DNA from: Dehalococcoidia bacterium | GTDB taxonomy: Bacteria; Chloroflexota; Dehalococcoidia; Lucifugimonadales; VXLM01 | Reading direction: 5' to 3' | DNA length: 64,000 nucleotides | NCBI GenBank assembly: GCA_965220255.1 | Contig: OZ244816.1 | Location: 779,720-843,719 of the forward strand | In this document: piece by piece, positions 11,182-36,618 of the stretch | Layout of the letters: the number at the start of each line of letters is the position of its first letter | Numbering within the stretch: position 1 is the stretch's first letter | The notes under the pieces: model-generated | Told to the model about the DNA's origin: nothing | Database searches by the model: none | What the model saw: the letters and a program-made list of their open reading frames with translations, nothing else | Position numbers and translations under genes: made by a program

Positions 11182-12072
11182 ATGGGAGTAACTGTAGTTA
11201 GCTGGAACATTGGAAAGATGCGCAAGCCGTGGCACGAGCTGGTGCGGATGGATGCGGATGTCGCCCTACTTCAGGAGGCCGTGCCGCCGCCGGAGGGGGC
11301 GGGCGTTTTGGATATCGGGCCACAAGATGCGTGGGACTCGCATTCCTGGAATTCTGACTGGTGGCACGGTCGTGGCTGGAACAAGATGTATGACCGATGG
11401 CCTATGGTCGTGCGCCTATCGGACCGTGTGGAGGTGGAGTGGTTCAGACAGATTAGCCCTTGGGGGGGCGCTGAAGCGAATGAGATTGAAGTGAGCGGCA
11501 TTGGGACGATCACTGCGGCGCGAATTACACCGAAGGACGGATCAACCGAGCCGTTCATTGCAGTTTCGATGTATGGAAGATGGATAAGGGCACATTCCAG
11601 CGTCAAGACGTCTTGGAGCTTTGGCGTTGCGGACGTCTCCGTACACCGCATCATCTCCGATCTCTCGGCCTTCATTGGCCACGAGAATCCACAGACGCAT
11701 CGCATTCTGGCGGCAGGCGATCTGAACATCGCGCACGGCTACGGTGACGGCGGCAACCCCGCGTACTGGGAGGCACGGTACCGGTCGGTGTTCGACAGGA
11801 TGTCGGCGATTGGGATGGAGTTCATGGGGCCGCAGGCACCGAACGGCAGGCAGGCGAAAACGCAGGCAACAGGCGAACCGGCGGACTCTCGCAACGTCGT
11901 CACGTTCTACCTCCCGGGGAATAACCCGGAGACTGGAAACAACATTCAACTGGACTACGCGTTCGCCTCGCGAGGGTTCCATGAGAACGTGAATGTGCAG
12001 GCGCTGAACGAGGTTGATGAGTGGGGGTCGAGCGACCACTGCCGGGTGCTGATCGAGATTGGGGAGGGATAG
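11182..12072 (+). CDS. Endonuclease/exonuclease/phosphatase (EEP) family protein
   Basis: VVSWNIGKM...LLQEA N-terminus and C-terminal SDHCRVLIEI; RBS gaggagga. Confidence 0.75.
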   Translation: MGVTVVSWNIGKMRKPWHELVRMDADVALLQEAVPPPEGAGVLDIGPQDAWDSHSWNSDWWHGRGWNKMYDRWPMVVRLSDRVEVEWFRQISPWGGAEANEIEVSGIGTITAARITPKDGSTEPFIAVSMYGRWIRAHSSVKTSWSFGVADVSVHRIISDLSAFIGHENPQTHRILAAGDLNIAHGYGDGGNPAYWEARYRSVFDRMSAIGMEFMGPQAPNGRQAKTQATGEPADSRNVVTFYLPGNNPETGNNIQLDYAFASRGFHENVNVQALNEVDEWGSSDHCRVLIEIGEG

Positions 12073-26202: not shown

Positions 26203-27522
26203 CTAGAGCAGGCCCTCGTCGCGGAAGTCGTCGATGGTGCGTTCGAGGGCTTCGACGGTGGCCTCGATGTCTTCCTCGGTGTGGGCGGCGCTGAGGAGGT
26301 AGCGGTCGAAGCCGTCGACGCCGTGGTTGTACATGGCGAGGACGCCGTGCTTCTTGAGGTCGGCGCGCGGCTCGACCTCGTCGTAGCGCAGGGAGTAGAT
26401 CTCCTCTTCGTCGGCCAGCTCCAAGCCCAGGCGGAGGAGCACTATGGATGCGACGCCGGTGGCGATGCCGGGGACTTCCTTGCGCGTGAGGACCTCATTC
26501 ATGCCCTGCTTGAGTTGCTCGGCGCGGGCGGTGGCCGTGTCGTTGATAGGACGGTCCTTGACGTATTCGAGTGCTGTCACCCCCGCCGCGGCGGATAGGG
26601 GGTTCGCGTTGAAGGTGCCGTTGTGGGCGATGCGGCCGTTGGAGTTGAAGTCGTCATCGTCGCGGAACTGGATCATGTCGATGATGTCGGCCTTGCCCGC
26701 GACACATGCGCCGGGCAGTCCGCCACCGAGAATCTTGGCGTGTGTGGAGAGATCCGGCACGACGCCGTAGTAGCCGGACGCGCCGTTGCGTGAGGTGCGG
26801 AAGCCGGTGACGACCTCGTCCATGATGTAGACGACGCCGTGCTGCTCGGTCACCTGCCGGAGCTCTTCGAGGAAGCTGGGGGTGATCGGCTCCTGTCCCA
26901 TGTGCGCGCCGGTGGGTTCGAGGATGATTCCGGCCACGTCGCCGCCTGCGATGGCCTGCTCGACCTGTGAAATGTCGTTCGGTTCGAGGACGATGATCGA
27001 GTCGACCACTCCGTCGGGGACGCCGCTGGGGGCGGCCCATCCGGGCACGGCGTAGTCGCTCCATCCGTGGAAGTGGTTCTTGAAGCGGATGATCTTGTCG
27101 CGGCCGGTGTAGGCGCGCGCCATTCTCATGGCCATCATGTCGGCCTCGGTGCCGGAGCTGTTGAAGCGGACCTTTTCGGCGCAGGGGACGAGGTCTTTGA
27201 CCAGCTCGCCCCACCTGATCTCGATATCGGTCGATGCGCTCCAGTGGGTGCCGATAGCCATCTGGTCCTGCACGGCCTTGACGACGGCGGGATGGTTGTG
27301 GCCGAGAATCAGCGCGCCGTGTCCGGTCTTGTAGTCGACGATCCTGTTGCCGTCGACGTCGTACTTGACCGCGCCCTCGGAGTGGGTGACGTAGTACGGG
27401 AACGGGGTGAGGTTTCGCGCGTCGTGGGTGACGCCGTTGGGGAACAGGTCCTTGGCGACCTCGTACCGCGCCAGCGACTCCGGGTGGAGGTCGATGTACT
27501 GCTGCTCGATGGATGTGACCAT
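26203..27522 (-). CDS. Class III aminotransferase (glutamate-1-semialdehyde aminomutase-like)
   Basis: 439 aa; ...YKTGHGALILGHNHP..., DEVVTGFR, HAKILGGGLP PLP-lysine context. Confidence 0.85.
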   Translation of the reverse strand: MVTSIEQQYIDLHPESLARYEVAKDLFPNGVTHDARNLTPFPYYVTHSEGAVKYDVDGNRIVDYKTGHGALILGHNHPAVVKAVQDQMAIGTHWSASTDIEIRWGELVKDLVPCAEKVRFNSSGTEADMMAMRMARAYTGRDKIIRFKNHFHGWSDYAVPGWAAPSGVPDGVVDSIIVLEPNDISQVEQAIAGGDVAGIILEPTGAHMGQEPITPSFLEELRQVTEQHGVVYIMDEVVTGFRTSRNGASGYYGVVPDLSTHAKILGGGLPGACVAGKADIIDMIQFRDDDDFNSNGRIAHNGTFNANPLSAAAGVTALEYVKDRPINDTATARAEQLKQGMNEVLTRKEVPGIATGVASIVLLRLGLELADEEEIYSLRYDEVEPRADLKKHGVLAMYNHGVDGFDRYLLSAAHTEEDIEATVEALERTIDDFRDEGLL

Positions 27523-27618
27523 GCGGTTCCTCGCTCGTAGCGTGTGGGATCGGGCCTAAGCCACGCTCATTATAGCCGTGTGACGTGGGGGAATGAAAGC
27601 GGCCGGGAGATTGGGTAA

Positions 27619-27724
27619 GTGTTCAGAGTTGGTGAGGTGAACGTCCCCGCCCCTCTGGATTCCGGCCTTCGCCGGAATGACGGTGGCTTTATATGTCGAG
27701 CGCCCTCACTTACTCTGCTCGTAA
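27619..27724. repeat. REP-F composite element (right IR degenerate)
   Basis: gtgttcagagttggtgagg ... internal REP-A 27657..27683 ... cctcacttactctg. Confidence 0.55.
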
Positions 27725-27830
27725 CTGTTCAGAATTGATGATATGAACACGGCCCCACCCCTGTGGATACCCGCCTTCGCGGGTATGATGGTGGATGTAT
27801 GCATTGTGCGCTCTCACGAAGTCTGAACAG
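27725..27830. repeat. REP-F composite element, tandem to the previous one
   Basis: ctgttcagaattgatgat ... internal REP-A 27765..27791 ... tctcacgaagtctgaacag. Confidence 0.65.
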
Positions 27831-27844
27831 TTACGAGGGTGGGG

Positions 27845-28282
27845 TCACGGCCCAGTGCGTTCCCAGGACGCTATCGGTCCGGGAACGGCGAGATGGCAAG
27901 GGTGCGGTTCGGGGACAGTGACCCCTTTGAGACGTTCGAGTGCGGCAGGGGCACGGAGCATGAGCTTGGCTGTCAGGTGGGCAAGCTCGTAACGCAGCTG
28001 GCCTTCGGTGACCACGATGGGGGTTATGTCGGGATGGGGAAGGCGGATCTTGGTGCGGTCGAAGTTGTAGCCGCGCCGGGCCGCTTCGTCGCATACGGCG
28101 TGCAGGTAGGAGGCGATGGCGTGCCCAGGGAGCGCGTGGGCGCGGAAGCGTTGTAGTTGAGGGTGATTCCGGTATCCTTGTGTGGGGCCGCTAAGCACCT
28201 TCTGCGCGAGAAGCGCTTCTCGCCACAGGGCGACGAGTCCTTTCGTATCCAGATAGCGGGGGTGGAGGGACCAGAGACGCAT
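27845..28282 (-). CDS. Pyrimidine dimer DNA glycosylase (T4 endonuclease V / DenV-like family)
   Basis: MRLWSLHPRYLDTKGLVALWREALLAQKVL..PTQGYRNHPQLQRF. Confidence 0.8.
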   Translation of the reverse strand: MRLWSLHPRYLDTKGLVALWREALLAQKVLSGPTQGYRNHPQLQRFRAHALPGHAIASYLHAVCDEAARRGYNFDRTKIRLPHPDITPIVVTEGQLRYELAHLTAKLMLRAPAALERLKGVTVPEPHPCHLAVPGPIASWERTGP

Positions 28283-28368
28283 GAGGGCCTGCCGTCACCG
28301 CGAGAATGGCAGAACCCGCGGCAACAGCGAGGCCCTTTTCATCTCAATGCCTCCAGCAGAAACTGCGG

Positions 28369-28575
28369 CTAGGCGAGTTCGCCGATGGCCGTCAGGCTGA
28401 TTACGCCCGCGATGGCTACGAGTATGTATATGACCCGCGAGATCACGTTGACGTCGCCGAACTTCATTCCTCCTGCAATCAGGGCCACGAGGTCGAACTT
28501 GAACAGGCCTACCAATCCCCAGTTCACTGCGCCGACCGCTGCAAGGACTATCGCTATAATCTGTACCATTTCCAT
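28369..28575 (-). CDS. DUF378 small membrane protein
   Basis: AVGAVNWGLVGLFKFDLVALI signature; 68 aa; RBS gaaggaggga. Confidence 0.8.
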   Translation of the reverse strand: MEMVQIIAIVLAAVGAVNWGLVGLFKFDLVALIAGGMKFGDVNVISRVIYILVAIAGVISLTAIGELA

Positions 28576-28613
28576 TAGTTCCCTCCTTCACCGGGAAGTG
28601 TTGATGATGTATA

Positions 28614-28642
28614 ATACTAACATGATATAAATTATTTGTCTA
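28614..28642 (-). promoter_or_regulatory. Sigma70-like promoter for the DUF378 gene (TAGACA-17 nt-TAGTAT)
   Basis: Read on the minus strand in a short AT-rich stretch about 40 nt upstream of ATG 28575. Confidence 0.4.
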
Positions 28643-28689
28643 CTATATTCTACATTTAGGAGCAAATGTTGAGGTCGGCGGGAGATTCC

Positions 28690-28717
28690 AGATTCCTCTC
28701 TGCGCTCGGAATGACAG
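28690..28717. repeat. REP-C half-site (agattcctctctgcgctcggaatgacag)
   Basis: Matches the arms of the inverted pairs inside the MITEs and at 54633. Confidence 0.55.
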
Positions 28718-28805
28718 GGGTTGCTCGGAATATTTCATGAAGGCCGCCACCCTCATCACGTGGAATGAAAATGGGGTTGGCACGAGCCAGCAGGATCCGG
28801 GGACT

Positions 28806-28832
28806 GGATTCCGGCCTCCGCCGGAATGACGG
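28806..28832. repeat. REP-A variant
   Basis: ggattccggcctccgccggaatgacgg. Confidence 0.75.
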
Positions 28833-28854
28833 GTGGTGGCGTGGTATCGGGGAC

Positions 28855-28880
28855 GGGCAACCACAGGGGTCGCCCCCTAC
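28855..28880. repeat. REP-E hairpin variant
   Basis: gggcaaccacaggggtcgccccctac. Confidence 0.6.
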
Positions 28881-28995
28881 AATGGGTAGCCGGGGTTTAT
28901 TTTCGTAGCAATGACAGGGGGTTGCTCGGATTGACGGGCTGTGACATGAGGTGCTCAAGGGTCGCAAAGGACGGGAACTCGGCGTTTCAGGACAT

Positions 28996-29022
28996 GGATT
29001 CCCGCGTGCGCGGGAATGACGG
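28996..29022. repeat. REP-A hairpin
   Basis: ggattcccgcgtgcgcgggaatgacgg. Confidence 0.8.
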
Positions 29023-29075
29023 ACGTTATGCAAGCGTCTTCTTACGTGGAAAAGACATTGGACAGGTGAACTTAG

Positions 29076-29978
29076 ATGGATAACGAGAGTCTTCTGGCAG
29101 AGGCTCGAGACAAGCACGGGGAGGCCTTAATTCTCGGTGAGCCTGCACTGGCGCACGCGGTGATCGAGCAGGCGCTCAGTCGCGGTTTGGGCCGGGCGGA
29201 ACTCTACCTGGAGGTATTGGCTCCTTCGCAGGTCAGGATCGGGGAGATGTGGCACGAGGGCAGGATCAATGTTGCCCAAGAGCACCTCGCGACGACGATA
29301 ACGATGGAGATGATGGACTTCTTGAGGCAGGGAATGGCGTCGCGGGCGGGACTGGGGGTGAGGGCCGTGGTGACGCCTGTGGAGGGCGACCAACACACTA
29401 TCGGGGCGCGAATGATAGCTGATTTTCTGGCGATGGACGGCTGGGAGGTCGATTTCCTTGGAAATGGAACGCCTGCCGATGATCTTGCCGAATTTGTTCG
29501 ACAGAGGAATGCCGATCTCGTTGCGCTCTCTTCCACCCTGCCTGAGTTCCTACCGAACGCCGGAAACGCCTCCAACGCGATCCGGGAACTGAACTCGCCC
29601 GTTCCGAAGATTCTGCTGGGCGGCAAGGCGCTCGACAAGGCGGACCGGGACATAGAAGGATTGGGATGCGACGCCACTGCGGGCAACATCTTGGAGGCGG
29701 TTGCGGAAGCGCGGCGACTCGTTGGCCTGACGGAGGAGAGGTTGACTCTCGAAGAGCAGTTGGGAGTGATGGGCAGACGGATCAATGAAGCGAGGGGCAG
29801 TCGGAAAATGACACAGCAGGCGCTGGCGGACGCATCGGGACTGGACCGGACGTATATCAGCCTGGTTGAGCATGGGAAGCAGAATCTCACTATTGGCGCG
29901 GCGCTTAAGATTGCCCATGCACTGGATGTACCGATCGGCAATCTACTGGCGTCCAGTGCCTCTGATCGAGAAGGGTAG
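29076..29978 (+). CDS. Cobalamin-binding (CarH/LitR-like B12 module) protein with C-terminal XRE-family helix-turn-helix
   Basis: IGEMWHEGRINVAQEHLAT is a W-x9-E-H motif. VVTPVEGDQHTIGARMIADFL is a D-x-H-x-x-G motif followed by a Rossmann-like B12 domain. The C-terminus MTQQALADASGLDRTYISLVEHGKQNLTIGAALKIAHAL is HTH_3-like. Confidence 0.8.
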   Translation: MDNESLLAEARDKHGEALILGEPALAHAVIEQALSRGLGRAELYLEVLAPSQVRIGEMWHEGRINVAQEHLATTITMEMMDFLRQGMASRAGLGVRAVVTPVEGDQHTIGARMIADFLAMDGWEVDFLGNGTPADDLAEFVRQRNADLVALSSTLPEFLPNAGNASNAIRELNSPVPKILLGGKALDKADRDIEGLGCDATAGNILEAVAEARRLVGLTEERLTLEEQLGVMGRRINEARGSRKMTQQALADASGLDRTYISLVEHGKQNLTIGAALKIAHALDVPIGNLLASSASDREG

Positions 29979-30070
29979 CGATATTTGGGTTACATGAAGA
30001 CGACAGTGTCGTTCTATCTCATAAACACATTGCGGCGAACCGGCTTGTTCATGAATAACCTACCGACGCG

Positions 30071-30090
30071 AATTGTCGTTATCTACAATT
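30071..30090. promoter_or_regulatory. Palindrome AATTGT-N8-ACAATT, candidate operator upstream of the RND gene
   Basis: Perfect 6-bp half-sites, 95 nt upstream of ATG 30185, directly downstream of the HTH gene. Confidence 0.3.
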
Positions 30091-30106
30091 GGTGTCAGAA
30101 AGTGCT

Positions 30107-30130
30107 CGCCCCCAACTACGGTCGGGGGCG
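30107..30130 (+). terminator. GC-rich hairpin (cgccccc-N10-gggggcg) followed by ttcttg; possible terminator of the B12/HTH gene
   Basis: 7-bp G/C stem, weak T tract. Confidence 0.3.
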
Positions 30131-30184
30131 TTCTTGCGAAGCGGCGCTGAATTGAACTAGAACGGACCCATTCAGGAGCGATAC

Positions 30185-33100
30185 ATGACATTCATCACCG
30201 GCCTAGCGGTCCGCAATCGGACGGTTACGGTTCTCGCCATAATCCTCGTTCTGACTGCGGGTATAACCGCCTACCGTTCGCTGCAGGTCGAGCTATTCCC
30301 CGAAATCGAGTTTCCTCTCGTAACGGTCTCGACAGCGTACCCGTCGGCGAATCCCGACGCCGTCGTCCGCGACGTGACTGCACCTATAGAGCGCGCGATT
30401 GCGGGAACGGCCGGGTTGGAGTCGGTCCAGAGCACTACCTTTGAAGGCAACTCGTTAGTATTGGCCACCTTTGTATATGGAACGGACATGGCCGCGGCGG
30501 CGGACCAGATCTCCTCCGCCGTGAAGGGGATATCGTTCAGCAGCGGGGTTGATGAACCCTCGGTGGGTCGGTTCAATCCCGACCAATTCCCGGTAATCCA
30601 GTTCAGCGTCCTGTCGGACAGGGGCGCCGACGACCTGCAGGGGATCGTCGCGTCGCAGGTGCTGCCGGCGCTTGCGGACATCGAGGGTATCCTGGATATC
30701 CAGGCTACGGGAGAGATCGAGCGGAGGGTACAGATCACCGCGAACGCCGATCGGTTGACGGCAAGCGGGGTCTCGATGTTCCAGATATCGAACGCCCTGA
30801 GAGAGAACAACGTAAGTCTTCCGGCGGGCGCCATCCTTGAAGGAGGGCAGGCGGTACTTGCGAAGACAACGCACACATTCAGCTCCGTCGATGACCTCAA
30901 GAATCTCATAGTGGGAACGTCGGAGTCCGGCCCTGTCCTTCTCGGAGACGTGGCGGACGTAAGCCTAGGGTCAGCAGCGCCGACGAGCATTTCCCGCACG
31001 AACGGCAAGCCGAGCGTGGGAGTTTCGATCGTCAAGGAAGCGGAAGCAAACACTATCGATGTTACGAGCGCCGTGCGTGACGCTCTGGACGGTCTCGAGG
31101 GGTTGCCGTCGGACGTGGAGATCGTCATCGTTTCGGACCAGGGGCCGAGCATTCAGCACCAGATCGACACCCTTCTGCGGGAGGCGATGTTCGGGTTCCT
31201 GTTCGCTGTGACGGTCGTATTCGCATTCATGCTGACGCTGAAGCCGACGGTCCCGCGAGGGCTGCTGAACACGCTTCGACCGACGGTAGTCATCGCACTG
31301 TCGATCCCGCTGAGCGTCTTCACGGGCGTGCTGCTGATGGCGTGGCAGGACATGTCGCTGAACTTCATGACACTGGGAGGACTGGCGATTTCCGTCGGTC
31401 GCGTGGTCGACGACGCGATCGTGGTATTGGAGAACGTCTATCGTCACATCCAGGCGGGTCGAGAGAGGTGGCGGGCGGCGCTTGAGGCGACGGCAGAGGT
31501 CGGCCCGGCGATCTTCGCATCGACGATGACCACCATCGTCGTGTTCGCGCCGCTGGCCTTCATCCAGGGGTTGGTGGGCGCGTTCTTCGCGCCATTCGCG
31601 CTCACGGTCAGCTTCGCCCTCGTCGCGTCGCTGGTGGTGGCGCTGACGGCCGTTCCGGTGCTGGGCGCTTATCTGCTTAGGCCCGGCGACCTGCCCGAAG
31701 GGGCGGGAGAAGAGGACGACACATTCGTCCAAGAGACGTGGATGCAGCGCCTGTATACTCCGATAATCAAGTGGACGCTCCGGCATAAGGCGATCACTTT
31801 GATAGCCGCCTTCGCGCTGACCATCGGAAGCATGGGACTGACGTTCTTCATTCCCGTCACGCTCTTCCCAAGCGGGGGCGATCGACTTATGCAAATCGAA
31901 CTCTCCCTTCCTCCCGGAACTCCGCCCGACCGAACTCTGGCCCAAGTGGTCGAAATCGAGGAGCGGGTGAGCGGCGTCGCCGAGGTGTACAGCACCACAA
32001 TCGGCGCGTCGAGCGTGTCGTTTGGGGGCAGGCCGGGCGGACTCAACCAGGCCGGAATCCTGGTGAATCTGTCGGATGACGCGCCGGAAGACATCGCCCA
32101 GACCCTGAGAGAAGAGCTCGACACGGGTGGGCGAACCTTGAGAATTCGGGAGGTGCAGAGCGGCCCCCCGACCTCCGGTCTCGATGTCAGAATCACGGGA
32201 TCGAACTACGACGATATCGTCGCGGTCTCCGAGCAACTGACGACCTCGTTCAGCGAACTGGATGGGGTCATCAACATCGAGAACAACGTTGCGGAGGCGC
32301 GCGATGAGGCATCCATTCTGGTCGACCCGGGGAAGGCGGCGAGCATCGGCTTGAGCACGAGGCAAGTCGGCCTGCAGCTGAGCCAGTACCTCATCGGCGA
32401 GACGGTCACCCGAATAACCATCAACGATACGGTTACCGACGTGGTGTTGTCGGGCGACCGCAGGGCAATGTTAGGCGGGATAGCGGCGGTTGAGAGTCTC
32501 ACTATTACGGGACCGCTCGGCTCGGCTCCACTCGGGAGCCTGGCGGAAGTGGTCGTGAGGGAAGGCCCGGTGACGATCAGCCGGACGGACGGCATTCGGT
32601 CGGCCACCATCACGGGTGACATCGTAGCCGAGGATGCACAGCAGGTCGGGAGTCTGATCGACGAGAAGATAGCCGCGATAGCGCTGCCTCCGGGCGTGTC
32701 AATCACAAGCGGCGGGCTGTTCGCGGACATCGCCGAGGGGTTCCAGGCCATCTTCATCTCGATGGCCGTTGGAATCGTACTGGTATACCTGGTCATGGTG
32801 ACGAGCCTTGGGTCCCTGAGGAACCCCATCGTCATCGTCACCACCCTACCCTTCGCGCTGATCGGCGCTCTGGCCGCGCTGGTCATAACCGACAGGTCGC
32901 TGGGCCTGCCCGCCATGATGGGCATCCTGCTGCTGATCGGAATCGTGGTGACGAACGCCATCGTGCTGATCGCCTTCGTCGAGCAGCTTCGGGAGAAGGG
33001 AATGTCGGTCTACGACGCCCTCATCAACGGCGGACGAGTGCGGCTGCGTCCAATTCTCATGACCGCCCTGACGACGAGCTTCGCGCTGCTGCCGTTAGCA

Positions 33101-33292
33101 GCGGCTTCATCGGACGAAGGGGGGATCATCAGCGCAGAGTTGGCGACCGTGGTTATCGGGGGGCTGATGAGCTCGACAGGGCTCACGCTCATCGTGGTGC
33201 CGGTGGTGTACAGCATATTCAATGAGAGCATTCCGAATATGTTCCGGCGCATTGGCGGCGCACTGAGTCGGAAGCCTGCGGCGTCGACCTGA
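30185..33292 (+). CDS. RND (AcrB/HAE-type) efflux transporter permease
   Basis: 1035 aa, 12-TM/two large loop architecture; typical N-terminus ...RNRTVTVLAIILVL.G..AY.SL.VELFPEIEFP.V.V; no membrane-fusion or outer-membrane partner genes adjacent. Confidence 0.9.
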   Translation: MTFITGLAVRNRTVTVLAIILVLTAGITAYRSLQVELFPEIEFPLVTVSTAYPSANPDAVVRDVTAPIERAIAGTAGLESVQSTTFEGNSLVLATFVYGTDMAAAADQISSAVKGISFSSGVDEPSVGRFNPDQFPVIQFSVLSDRGADDLQGIVASQVLPALADIEGILDIQATGEIERRVQITANADRLTASGVSMFQISNALRENNVSLPAGAILEGGQAVLAKTTHTFSSVDDLKNLIVGTSESGPVLLGDVADVSLGSAAPTSISRTNGKPSVGVSIVKEAEANTIDVTSAVRDALDGLEGLPSDVEIVIVSDQGPSIQHQIDTLLREAMFGFLFAVTVVFAFMLTLKPTVPRGLLNTLRPTVVIALSIPLSVFTGVLLMAWQDMSLNFMTLGGLAISVGRVVDDAIVVLENVYRHIQAGRERWRAALEATAEVGPAIFASTMTTIVVFAPLAFIQGLVGAFFAPFALTVSFALVASLVVALTAVPVLGAYLLRPGDLPEGAGEEDDTFVQETWMQRLYTPIIKWTLRHKAITLIAAFALTIGSMGLTFFIPVTLFPSGGDRLMQIELSLPPGTPPDRTLAQVVEIEERVSGVAEVYSTTIGASSVSFGGRPGGLNQAGILVNLSDDAPEDIAQTLREELDTGGRTLRIREVQSGPPTSGLDVRITGSNYDDIVAVSEQLTTSFSELDGVINIENNVAEARDEASILVDPGKAASIGLSTRQVGLQLSQYLIGETVTRITINDTVTDVVLSGDRRAMLGGIAAVESLTITGPLGSAPLGSLAEVVVREGPVTISRTDGIRSATITGDIVAEDAQQVGSLIDEKIAAIALPPGVSITSGGLFADIAEGFQAIFISMAVGIVLVYLVMVTSLGSLRNPIVIVTTLPFALIGALAALVITDRSLGLPAMMGILLLIGIVVTNAIVLIAFVEQLREKGMSVYDALINGGRVRLRPILMTALTTSFALLPLAAASSDEGGIISAELATVVIGGLMSSTGLTLIVVPVVYSIFNESIPNMFRRIGGALSRKPAAST

Positions 33293-35604: not shown

Positions 35605-36618
35605 TTGCGAGACTCGATTACTTTCCGTGCCTGCTATCGCACAACACATTCGCCCCGTTACACTGATCAACTACCTCGACGGAATCACATCGCAGTGACG
35701 CTCCCCGATCTCCTAACCGACCTGACCGACGTGGAAAAGCCCGTGACGTATTCGGGCCTCCTGCAGCTTTCCGACCTGCCCACGGAAGGCCTGGCGGAGC
35801 TCAAGACCGTATGGCCTGGGCTACCGGTAGAGCGTAGGCGCGAGGTCGTTCGGAAACTCGTCGAGCTGGCCGACGACAACGTGGAGTTCGACTTCAGCTC
35901 GATATTCAAGTCGTGTCTGTCGGACGACGACGATGCGATACGGGAGAAGGCTGCGCGGGGTCTCTGGGAGACGGAGGACCGGGCGATGATCCGTCCACTT
36001 GTCAAGCTGCTGGAAGATGACCCATACCCTGAGGTTCGGGCGGCGGCCGCCATGACGCTGAAGAACTTTTCGATGATGGCGCAGAACGGCAAGCTGCTCG
36101 CCAAAGATTGTGACAGGGTACGATCCGCGCTTCTGGCGGCGGTCAACAGCCCGACGGAGGATGTCGACGTTCGGCGGCGGGCGTTGGAGGCGGTGGCCAG
36201 CTTCAATACGTCAGAGACGAACAGCGCGGTCTGGGACGCGTATGAATCCGACAATCCGACGCTAGTCCAGAGCGCGATCTATGGGATGGGACAAAGCTCG
36301 AACGCCGACTGGCTGCCAACGGTCGTCGACGAGACGTCAAATCCCCAGGCGGCAATCCGGTACGAAGCGGCTACGGCGTGCGGACTTCTCGGCGAAGAGG
36401 GGTTGGTTCCACGCCTCGTGCGACTTCTCAGCGACGACGATTCGGAGGTGCGCTTGGCCTCGATCAAATCGATTGGGATGATAGGGGGCGCGATGGCGAA
36501 GAACGTGCTCCAGCAGCACCTCAATGACGGCGATGCCTCAATAGAAGAGGCCGCCCAGGAAGCCCTGAGCGGCCTCGAATTCGAGGACGATCCGCTTAGC
36601 TACCAGTTCGGGGCGTAG
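35605..36618 (+). CDS. HEAT-repeat protein
   Basis: Repeated ..D.D..VR..A...L.. units (PEVRAAAAMTLKNF, VDVRRRALEAVASF, SEVRLASIKSIGMIGG); an in-frame GTG at 35695 is an alternative start. Confidence 0.65.
   Translation: MRDSITFRACYRTTHSPRYTDQLPRRNHIAVTLPDLLTDLTDVEKPVTYSGLLQLSDLPTEGLAELKTVWPGLPVERRREVVRKLVELADDNVEFDFSSIFKSCLSDDDDAIREKAARGLWETEDRAMIRPLVKLLEDDPYPEVRAAAAMTLKNFSMMAQNGKLLAKDCDRVRSALLAAVNSPTEDVDVRRRALEAVASFNTSETNSAVWDAYESDNPTLVQSAIYGMGQSSNADWLPTVVDETSNPQAAIRYEAATACGLLGEEGLVPRLVRLLSDDDSEVRLASIKSIGMIGGAMAKNVLQQHLNDGDASIEEAAQEALSGLEFEDDPLSYQFGA

Follow-up and report, generated by a model that had tools for sequence, protein, structure and literature searches.

The stretch of DNA analysed here (the window; 64,000 nucleotides from contig OZ244816.1 of a Dehalococcoidia bacterium) carries a gene for a 300-residue protein that joins an N-terminal cobalamin (B12)-binding module, of the kind found in the photoreceptor CarH, to a C-terminal helix-turn-helix (HTH) domain of the XRE family. 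We refer to this protein as the regulator and to its B12 module as the cobalamin-binding domain (CBD). The gene lies divergent from a small membrane-protein gene of the DUF378 family, and the region between them holds a pair of predicted operators, O1 and O2, that is linked to the regulator gene in homologous loci. We consider it probable that the regulator is an adenosylcobalamin (AdoCbl)-dependent repressor of both divergent arms and that light relieves this repression.

Domain architecture and kinship of the regulator

The regulator gene and its domains occupy the following positions in the window.

29076-29978, plus strand: CBD-XRE regulator gene, 300 aa, ATG start; four-helix cap, Rossmann B12 domain, linker helix and C-terminal XRE HTH
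29121-29324, plus strand: B12-binding_2 four-helix cap, residues 16-83; bears G56-x-x-W59-H60 and E69-H70
29361-29675, plus strand: Rossmann B12-binding domain, residues 96-200; bears G104-D105-x-H107-x-x-G110, G129-x-x-x-P133, S152 and G182-G183
29784-29936, plus strand: residues 237-287, HTH_3 (XRE) DNA-binding domain; L256-D-R258-T259-Y260-I-S opens the recognition helix

The three families under which the earlier note, made from the sequence alone, had proposed to annotate the protein all exceed their Pfam gathering scores, with values far beyond chance level: B12-binding_2 covers residues 16-83 (E 1.8e-11; 44.5 bits, gathering score 23), B12-binding covers residues 96-200 (E 6.3e-17; 62 bits, gathering score 32.1) and HTH_3 (PF01381) covers residues 237-287 (E 5.6e-12; 46 bits, gathering score 23). 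HTH_19, HTH_31 and HTH_26 likewise pass on the C-terminus, where the note had placed a classical XRE domain. Its description of a protein devoid of an N-terminal DNA-binding domain also holds: Pfam returns zero MerR matches in the regulator, which begins straight at the B12-binding_2 cap, and a hidden N-terminal domain is impossible because the open reading frame (ORF) at 29076-29978 is already maximal, its ATG being the first start codon past the upstream stop. An AlphaFold2 model built from 75 homologues (mean pLDDT 86.4; pTM 0.71) contains a four-helix bundle, a five-stranded Rossmann domain, a linker and a five-helix HTH domain (residues 225-291), with lower confidence at linker residues 221-230 (pLDDT 63).

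The residues expected to hold and sense the cofactor are intact. HMMER aligns IGEMWHEGRINVAQEHLAT of the regulator with VGEAWHRGEIGVAEEHLAS of TtCarH, so that the W-x9-E-H motif is nearly superimposable on the Thermus segment that the earlier note had, correctly, compared it with; the lower-ligand motif GDQH aligns with GERH of TtCarH and lies within the Rossmann B12 domain, again as the note had read it. TtCarH residues W131, H132, E141, H142 and H177 thereby correspond to W59, H60, E69, H70 and H107 of the regulator. In TtCarH, H132 is the second axial ligand of the light state; its equivalent is His in 61 of the 75 homologues, the regulator itself included. G56, W59, E69, H70, D105, H107, G110, P133, S152 and G182-G183 are invariant in all 75, as is G122 (G192 in TtCarH), and G104 and G129 are kept in 67 and 57 of them. 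Among these, D105-x-H107-x-x-G110, S152 and G182-G183 are the base-off/His-on elements. The signature that has been proposed and experimentally validated for light-responsive CBDs consists of GxxW, EH, GxxH and GxxxP in the region equivalent to TtCarH residues 128-203 (SignatureFinder; PMC11796333), and it is complete in the regulator as G56-E-M-W59, E69-H70, G104-D-Q-H107 and G129-N-G-T-P133. From this conservation we infer that the regulator binds AdoCbl and responds to light.

Profile, sequence and fold comparisons all point to photoreceptors as the closest kin of the B12 module; the outcome that the note had named as refuting its reading, a placement with methyltransferase corrinoid proteins, did not occur. 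The best NCBIfam model is the CarH equivalog (NF052513; 82.9 bits against a 400-bit cut-off, aligned only at model positions 89-254, the light-sensing part), followed by pyl_corrinoid/TIGR02370 (53.7 bits against 215.3) and MtbC (45.9 bits against 350), all family models thus scoring below their cut-offs. The closest Protein Data Bank (PDB) sequences in a phmmer search are the photocobilins 8J2X, 8J2W and 8J2Y (E ~4e-22), then the CBD of CtMerR (8JBS; E 3e-18) and TtCarH/LitR (E ~2e-15); methyltransferase corrinoid proteins and methionine synthase (MetH) reach only 1e-8 or worse. The best 50 PDB matches of the AlphaFold2 model in Foldseek are all cobalamin photoreceptors, with TM-scores of 0.78-0.85 normalised to the target CBD and root-mean-square deviations of 2.7-3.3 Å for CBD-only chains. 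Both the sequence and the model comparisons thus support grouping the B12 module with experimentally proven photoreceptors, away from the methyltransferase corrinoid proteins.

When the C-terminal 78 residues, which contain the reading head, are searched alone against the PDB, the best matches are the restriction-modification controller (C) proteins C.AhdI (1Y7Y; 2e-9), C.BclI (2B5A; 6e-9) and C.Esp1396I (3CLC; 1e-5 to 2e-5), and the recognition helix opens with the same residues, LDRTYIS, as in C.Esp1396I. The latter protein uses R35 to read a TG dinucleotide at the flank, Y37, N47 and S52 to clamp the minor groove where it narrows at a central TATA, and R46 to read GTC of the C-box, and two of its dimers occupy two 18-bp sites (PMC3351150). 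R258, Y260 and N270 of the regulator are present in all 75 homologues and T259 in 70; N270 corresponds to N47 of C.Esp1396I, and R46 is replaced by Gln269, which is invariant.

The predicted double operator

Phylogenetic footprinting of the region between DUF378 and the regulator, based on 20 non-redundant loci, resolves two conserved blocks.

28605-28622, no strand assigned: predicted operator O1, TGATGTATAATACTAACA; 18 bp, TG...CA ends and central TATAAT, phylogenetic footprint
28637-28654, no strand assigned: predicted operator O2, TGTCTACTATATTCTACA; 18-bp palindrome with half-sites TGTnnAnTA and TAnTnnACA
28614-28649, no strand assigned: overlapping divergent sigma-70-like promoters inside the predicted operator pair; consensus matches only

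The two blocks are separated by a gap of 14 bp, with their centres 32 bp apart, and carry 1.23 (O1) and 1.14 (O2) bits of information per position on average, compared with 0.44 in the spacer; the block consensus reads TGnTGTATAATAATAACA - N14 - TGTCTAnTATATTCTACA. O2 is a good palindrome and O1 is symmetric mainly at its ends. The predicted operators have exactly the form read by a C.Esp1396I-type HTH, namely 18 bp with TG flanks and a central TATA. Within the 64 kb of the window, the block at 28605-28654 is unique (75.7 bits; background mean -94, standard deviation 17), O2 alone is also unique (28.4 bits against a shuffle maximum of 16.1), and neither the 50-bp nor the 18-bp model finds a further operator site above shuffle level.

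The geometry of O1, 14 bp and O2 is fixed in all 23 loci that carry DUF378, where the intergenic region usually measures ~110 bp. In ten out-of-training loci without DUF378 (L012, L013, L015, L016, L017, L019, L020, L023, L026 and L029), the best match in ~20 kb falls less than 100 bp upstream of the regulator gene every time. The double-operator block therefore belongs to the regulator and not to DUF378.

A consensus scan for promoters returns four sites, with 0.7 expected. The minus-strand candidate for DUF378, TAGACA-17-TAGTAT with a TG extension, lies within 28614-28649, and so does the plus-strand candidate ATGATA-16-TATATT (28622-28649). For a second plus-strand candidate, TTCACC-17-TATAAT (28587-28615), the -35 element falls outside that interval and the -10 element is the central TATAAT of O1. 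Rfam at a permissive threshold finds no relevant riboswitch or other RNA element in 27500-30400.

Operator-like sequences were also noted elsewhere. One at 29486-29503, TGCCGAATTTGTTCGACA, spans codons ~137-143 (LAEFVRQR) of the regulator gene and stays below threshold; together with its equivalent in the regulator coding region of locus L027 (10423-10440, TGTCGAGTTTGTTCGACA) it was set aside, as it is probably a by-product of coding constraint. Locus L037 has two further operator-like palindromes, TGTCTTATATATTCAACA and TGTCGAGTATATTCGATA, which lie 54 bp apart at 11650-11721; this pair is upstream of a fasciclin gene convergent with the regulator, which suggests direct control of fasciclin in that lineage.

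In the window the intergenic region is swollen to 500 bp, the additional ~420 bp lying between O2 and the start codon of the regulator. This insertion consists largely of repeats resembling repetitive extragenic palindromes (REP-like), built on the hairpin GGATTCC-N10-GGAATGAC, with intergenic copies at ~28691-28728, 28806-28843, 28907-28948 and 28996-29022.

28680-29025, plus strand: REP-like repeats of the intergenic region
2478, 3828, 5193, 7835, 9694, 10994, 15864, 26146 and 27674, plus strand: dispersed REP-like repeats
33335, 34747, 44711, 46836, 49730, 50909, 54730, 55346, 56201 and 58215, plus strand: dispersed REP-like repeats
34628, 54479, 54633, 55270 and 56035, minus strand: REP-like repeats, reverse copies

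The window contains 27 copies of the core octamer (22 on the plus and 5 on the minus strand), with ~1 expected per strand. We considered and rejected the notion that the 500-bp region is a special regulatory array, as it is swollen by copies of a genome-wide hairpin, which also create spurious ORFs there (for example 28656-29117, minus strand). Insertions occur at the same spot, between O2 and the regulator start, in loci L001, L007, L010 and L033, and never between O1 and DUF378. In L033 the spot is occupied by a related element, GTCATTCCGGCGAAAGCCGGAATCC; in L010 (9260-9960) a tandem unit of ~45 bp, GGAGGCTGTATCGTAGGGGCGTCCCTTGTGGGCGCCCTGGACCAT, is repeated in ~14 copies between O2 and the regulator start codon. 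Because of the ~420-bp insertion, the regulator arm in the window would have either a long structured 5' leader or another promoter, and the DUF378 arm is untouched. As a side observation on the same repeats, most minus-strand copies cluster at 54.4-56.1 kb, near the point (52-54 kb) at which the cumulative GC skew peaks; the skew is positive (up to +0.22) from 1 to ~54 kb and slightly negative from there to 64 kb, and this turn could be a replication-related strand switch.

Gene neighbourhood and distribution

The genes flanking the control region in the window encode membrane, efflux and repair functions.

27845-28282, minus strand: pyrimidine-dimer DNA glycosylase (Pyr_excise), 145 aa; Pfam PF03013, 9.3e-27; downstream of DUF378
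28369-28575, minus strand: DUF378 small membrane protein, 68 aa; Pfam PF04070, 1.8e-18; divergent from the regulator
30185-33292, plus strand: RND permease, 1035 aa; Pfam ACR_tran, 6.5e-206; 206 bp past the regulator

The glycosylase is probably in the same transcription unit as DUF378. The RND permease, which also matches NCBIfam RND_permease_2 below its cut-off, is probably co-transcribed with the regulator, and no terminator-like site was found in the 206 bp between the two genes. A small ORF in this gap (29985-30155) is conserved in close relatives only and was discounted as probably spurious. Some 5.6 kb downstream of the regulator, the window also encodes a 337-residue HEAT/PBS-lyase-type repeat protein (35605-36618) that is syntenic in loci L001, L005 and L006.

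Neighbours recur across the 45 loci in which they were counted, with DUF378 located by tblastn since greedy ORF calling missed it in several loci. DUF378 is the commonest partner, divergent from the regulator in 23 loci; a tandem-fasciclin protein takes its position in eight loci, all of distant members. An RND pump follows the regulator immediately in 18 loci and lies on the other arm, downstream of or in place of DUF378, in four; the pump is thus present in 22 loci, always attached to one or the other arm of the control region. Three loci have an adjoining MMPL transporter of the RND superfamily. The glycosylase adjoins in ~8 loci: L002-L006 and L014 have it where the window does, and L025 and L044 have it at another place. 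Because the remaining synteny varies among loci, these associations are more than inherited gene order. Genes for cobT (DBI_PRT), cobS and cobU stand beside the regulator in L012 (7174-9780), L020 (7077-9779), L026 and L033 (10966-13900), and in L033 cobT and cobS take the downstream slot usual for the RND pump; this placement could be a functional link between a B12-dependent regulator and B12 salvage. The 45 neighbourhoods contain no methyltransferase genes near the regulator, and restriction-modification genes are likewise missing among its neighbours. For DUF378 itself, we found no functional information in the literature.

A word-indexed search with the regulator gives 442 matches, the best 120 of which (63-100% identity) all bear the same three domains, and an exhaustive phmmer search of 1.84 billion cluster representatives (E <= 1e-30) returns 181 representatives in ~180 clusters at 50% identity. 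Among the top 150 of these 181, most are 290-310 residues long and collinear over residues ~10-293, with identity down to ~32%. The full-length architecture is found in 44 loci of species-representative genomes, almost all of them metagenome-assembled genomes of Dehalococcoidia/Chloroflexota; several isolate names (APA_, COS3_, IRC1_ and SB0661_) look like sponge-metagenome bins. Public names (entries P0030, P0095 and P0279) are generic, such as 'cobalamin-dependent protein' and 'helix-turn-helix domain-containing protein', or misleading, as in the IMG name of one homologue, 'methanogenic corrinoid protein MtbC1/DNA-binding XRE family transcriptional regulator'.

The earlier note had called the architecture distinct, and this claim stands only in part. 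In the literature on CBDs combined with XRE domains, we found no characterised CBD with a C-terminal XRE domain and no operator or regulon of such a protein; a mention of XRE in PMC8123684 proved unrelated. On the other hand, hundreds of such proteins are already in the databases under generic names, and a 2024 database-mining study mentions, in generic terms, light-responsive CBDs joined to an HTH domain at either end (PMC11796333), so that the existence of CBD-HTH fusions was already known. Newly described here are a reading head resembling that of C proteins, a double operator conserved across loci, and the neighbourhood of DUF378, RND, fasciclin and glycosylase genes.

Proposed mechanism, alternatives and known systems

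In the mechanism that we favour, the regulator would act as a one-component transcription factor in which a CarH-type, His-on AdoCbl photosensor controls a C-protein-type XRE HTH. In the dark, the B12 modules would hold several AdoCbl-loaded copies of the protein together, the simplest assembly being a tetramer like those of CarH and CtMerR, and the four heads of the tetramer would form two HTH dimers, one on O1 and one on O2. The four predicted half-sites of the two palindromes and the conserved G122 lend a tetramer indirect support. As the operator centres are 32 bp, or about three helical turns, apart, O1 and O2 would point to nearly the same side of the double helix, and because both palindromes overlap the -10 and -35 elements of the predicted divergent promoters, binding would repress both arms: DUF378 with the pyrimidine-dimer glycosylase on one side, and the regulator's own gene with the RND pump on the other. 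Light would cleave the Co-C bond, His60 may then capture the cobalt as in TtCarH, and the assembly would dissolve, with loss of cooperative binding and expression of both arms. The characterised CBD transcription factors TtCarH, TaCarH and CtMerR, which all go from tetramer to monomer in the light (PMC11796333), favour such a switch, and the UV-damage repair gene in the DUF378 arm fits a light regulon.

Several observations weigh against this account or parts of it. The head-to-tail salt bridge D201-R176 of TtCarH is not conserved, its equivalents in the regulator being G131 and Q106, and the oligomer interface may therefore differ. The photocobilins, which are the closest CBD relatives in sequence, break the rule of a switch from tetramer to monomer. 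On the DNA, O1 is only weakly palindromic; distant members (40-45% identity) keep a single O2-like palindrome, TGTCAAGTATAGTCAGCA, at -58 to -82; and the central TATA(A/T)T is probably a -10 element as well, so that some of the conservation would belong to the promoter and not to the operator. In the window itself, the ~420 bp of REP-like repeats after O2 may weaken the coupling of the regulator arm. Finally, one cluster of the family contains a TARA mesopelagic sequence, so that some hosts may see little light.

The last point bears on an alternative that we regard as rather unlikely, in which the regulator is mainly a dark sensor of cobalamin availability, with AdoCbl or another corrinoid as co-repressor, light sensitivity incidental and a regulon that tracks the B12 status of the corrinoid-dependent Dehalococcoidia. 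CarH itself needs B12 for repression, with both inputs sharing one switch, and the cobT, cobS and cobU genes beside the regulator in L012, L020, L026 and L033 agree with a B12 sensor, as does the mesopelagic sample. However, the usual regulon genes (DUF378, RND, fasciclin and UV glycosylase) are unrelated to B12, and neither a cobalamin riboswitch nor a B12 transporter is seen beside the regulator in the window. The protein itself also argues for a role of light: the W-x9-EH cap that packs the 5'-deoxyadenosyl group, a hallmark of light-responsive CBDs, is invariant in this family, and the His at the H132 position, the light-state lock of TtCarH, is largely kept.

Kinship of the head with C.AhdI, C.BclI and C.Esp1396I, down to the same start of the recognition helix, raises the alternative of a dual regulator, which we consider improbable. 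Here, a dimer at one site would activate through sigma at the -35 element, occupation of the second site would repress, and B12 or light would shift the balance between dimer and tetramer. C proteins do activate and then repress from two adjacent palindromes (PMC3351150), and the inner end of O1 overlaps a -35-like hexamer of the plus-strand promoter. The sites are nevertheless 32 bp apart from centre to centre and not adjacent, both cover -10-like elements, which favours plain repression, R46, the C-box reader, is exchanged for the invariant Q269, and the regulator lies outside any restriction-modification context. Far less probable still is that the protein is a corrinoid methyl-transfer protein (MtaC/MtbC-like) fused to an HTH domain, or a degenerate, cofactor-free dimerisation scaffold like CarA of Myxococcus. 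The IMG label on one member and matches to corrinoid-protein models (E 1e-14 to 1e-8) would suit a carrier, but these models fall well short of their own cut-offs and rank behind the CarH model, methyltransferase partner genes are absent nearby, and the invariance of all cofactor-binding residues argues against degeneration.

Beyond light-relieved repression as such, we tentatively entertain, as a possibility short of likelihood, that the regulator stands for a class of B12 photoswitch of its own, with a C-protein-type head gated by a CarH-type sensor; light or B12 would toggle the bridging of two palindromic operators, possibly by a transition from dimer, and not from monomer, to tetramer and possibly with activation too, the output being an envelope and efflux regulon in non-phototrophic marine, possibly sponge-associated Dehalococcoidia. 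If this were true, no light-controlled programme of efflux and cell-surface functions would have been known before in the phylum. If the favoured mechanism holds, B12 photoregulation would extend to a second DNA-binding fold and the opposite domain order, making the CarH sensor a portable module for transcription factors as it is for enzymes. Uncultured Dehalococcoidia would gain a light/B12 pathway whose output, in place of carotenoid genes, is DUF378, RND/MMPL transporters, fasciclin and a glycosylase acting on UV lesions, and DUF378 would gain its first regulatory context. The regulator with its 50-bp double operator would also offer a repressor-operator pair orthogonal to CarH/CarO for green-light optogenetics. 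Current understanding would not be overturned, as database mining had anticipated both the modularity of CBDs and their fusion to HTH domains; the regulator is a lead of optogenetic and ecological value that would cause a specialist no great surprise.

Compared with CarH/LitR (TtCarH, MxCarH and BmCarH; 5C8D/5C8E), the regulator shares the four-helix cap with W-x9-E-H, the Rossmann domain, the His lower ligand and the His at the H132 position. Like them, it would be a one-component transcription factor, and it probably represses its own gene together with a divergent unit via several operator half-sites. In contrast, CarH/LitR proteins carry an N-terminal MerR winged helix, a C-terminal CBD and the D201-R176 dimer salt bridge, and have carotenoid genes as neighbours, whereas the regulator has an N-terminal CBD, a C-terminal XRE/HTH_3 domain, no such salt bridge, and membrane and efflux genes nearby. 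The operators of TtCarH are 11-bp direct repeats, unlike the two inverted-repeat palindromes predicted here. The regulator lacks a MerR domain and does not reach the equivalog cut-off, and it therefore falls outside the CarH/LitR family as defined. CtMerR of Chloracidobacterium thermophilum (8JBS/8JBT; TM-score 0.78) shares the full GxxW/EH/GxxH/GxxxP signature, but retains a MerR domain at the N-terminus and bears Arg in place of H132.

The photocobilins (SasPcob, 8J2W/8J2X; AbDPcob, 8J2Y) have the closest CBDs in the PDB and, like the regulator, bear them at the N-terminus. Homology to 8J2W ends at about residue 190, however: their C-terminus is a biliverdin-binding, globin-like domain where the regulator has its HTH, and they regulate enzymes or change oligomeric state in other ways. 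C proteins have in common with the regulator paired 18-bp operators with TG/CA flanks and a central TATA, occupied by two dimers (PMC3351150), but are stand-alone proteins of ~80 residues from restriction-modification operons that read the GACT/AGTC C-box of adjacent operators through R46, whereas the regulator is a 300-residue sensor fusion with Q269 and sites 32 bp apart. Judged by its sequence, then, the regulator is neither a photocobilin, a C protein nor a corrinoid carrier, and is a member of the broader class of light-responsive CBDs.

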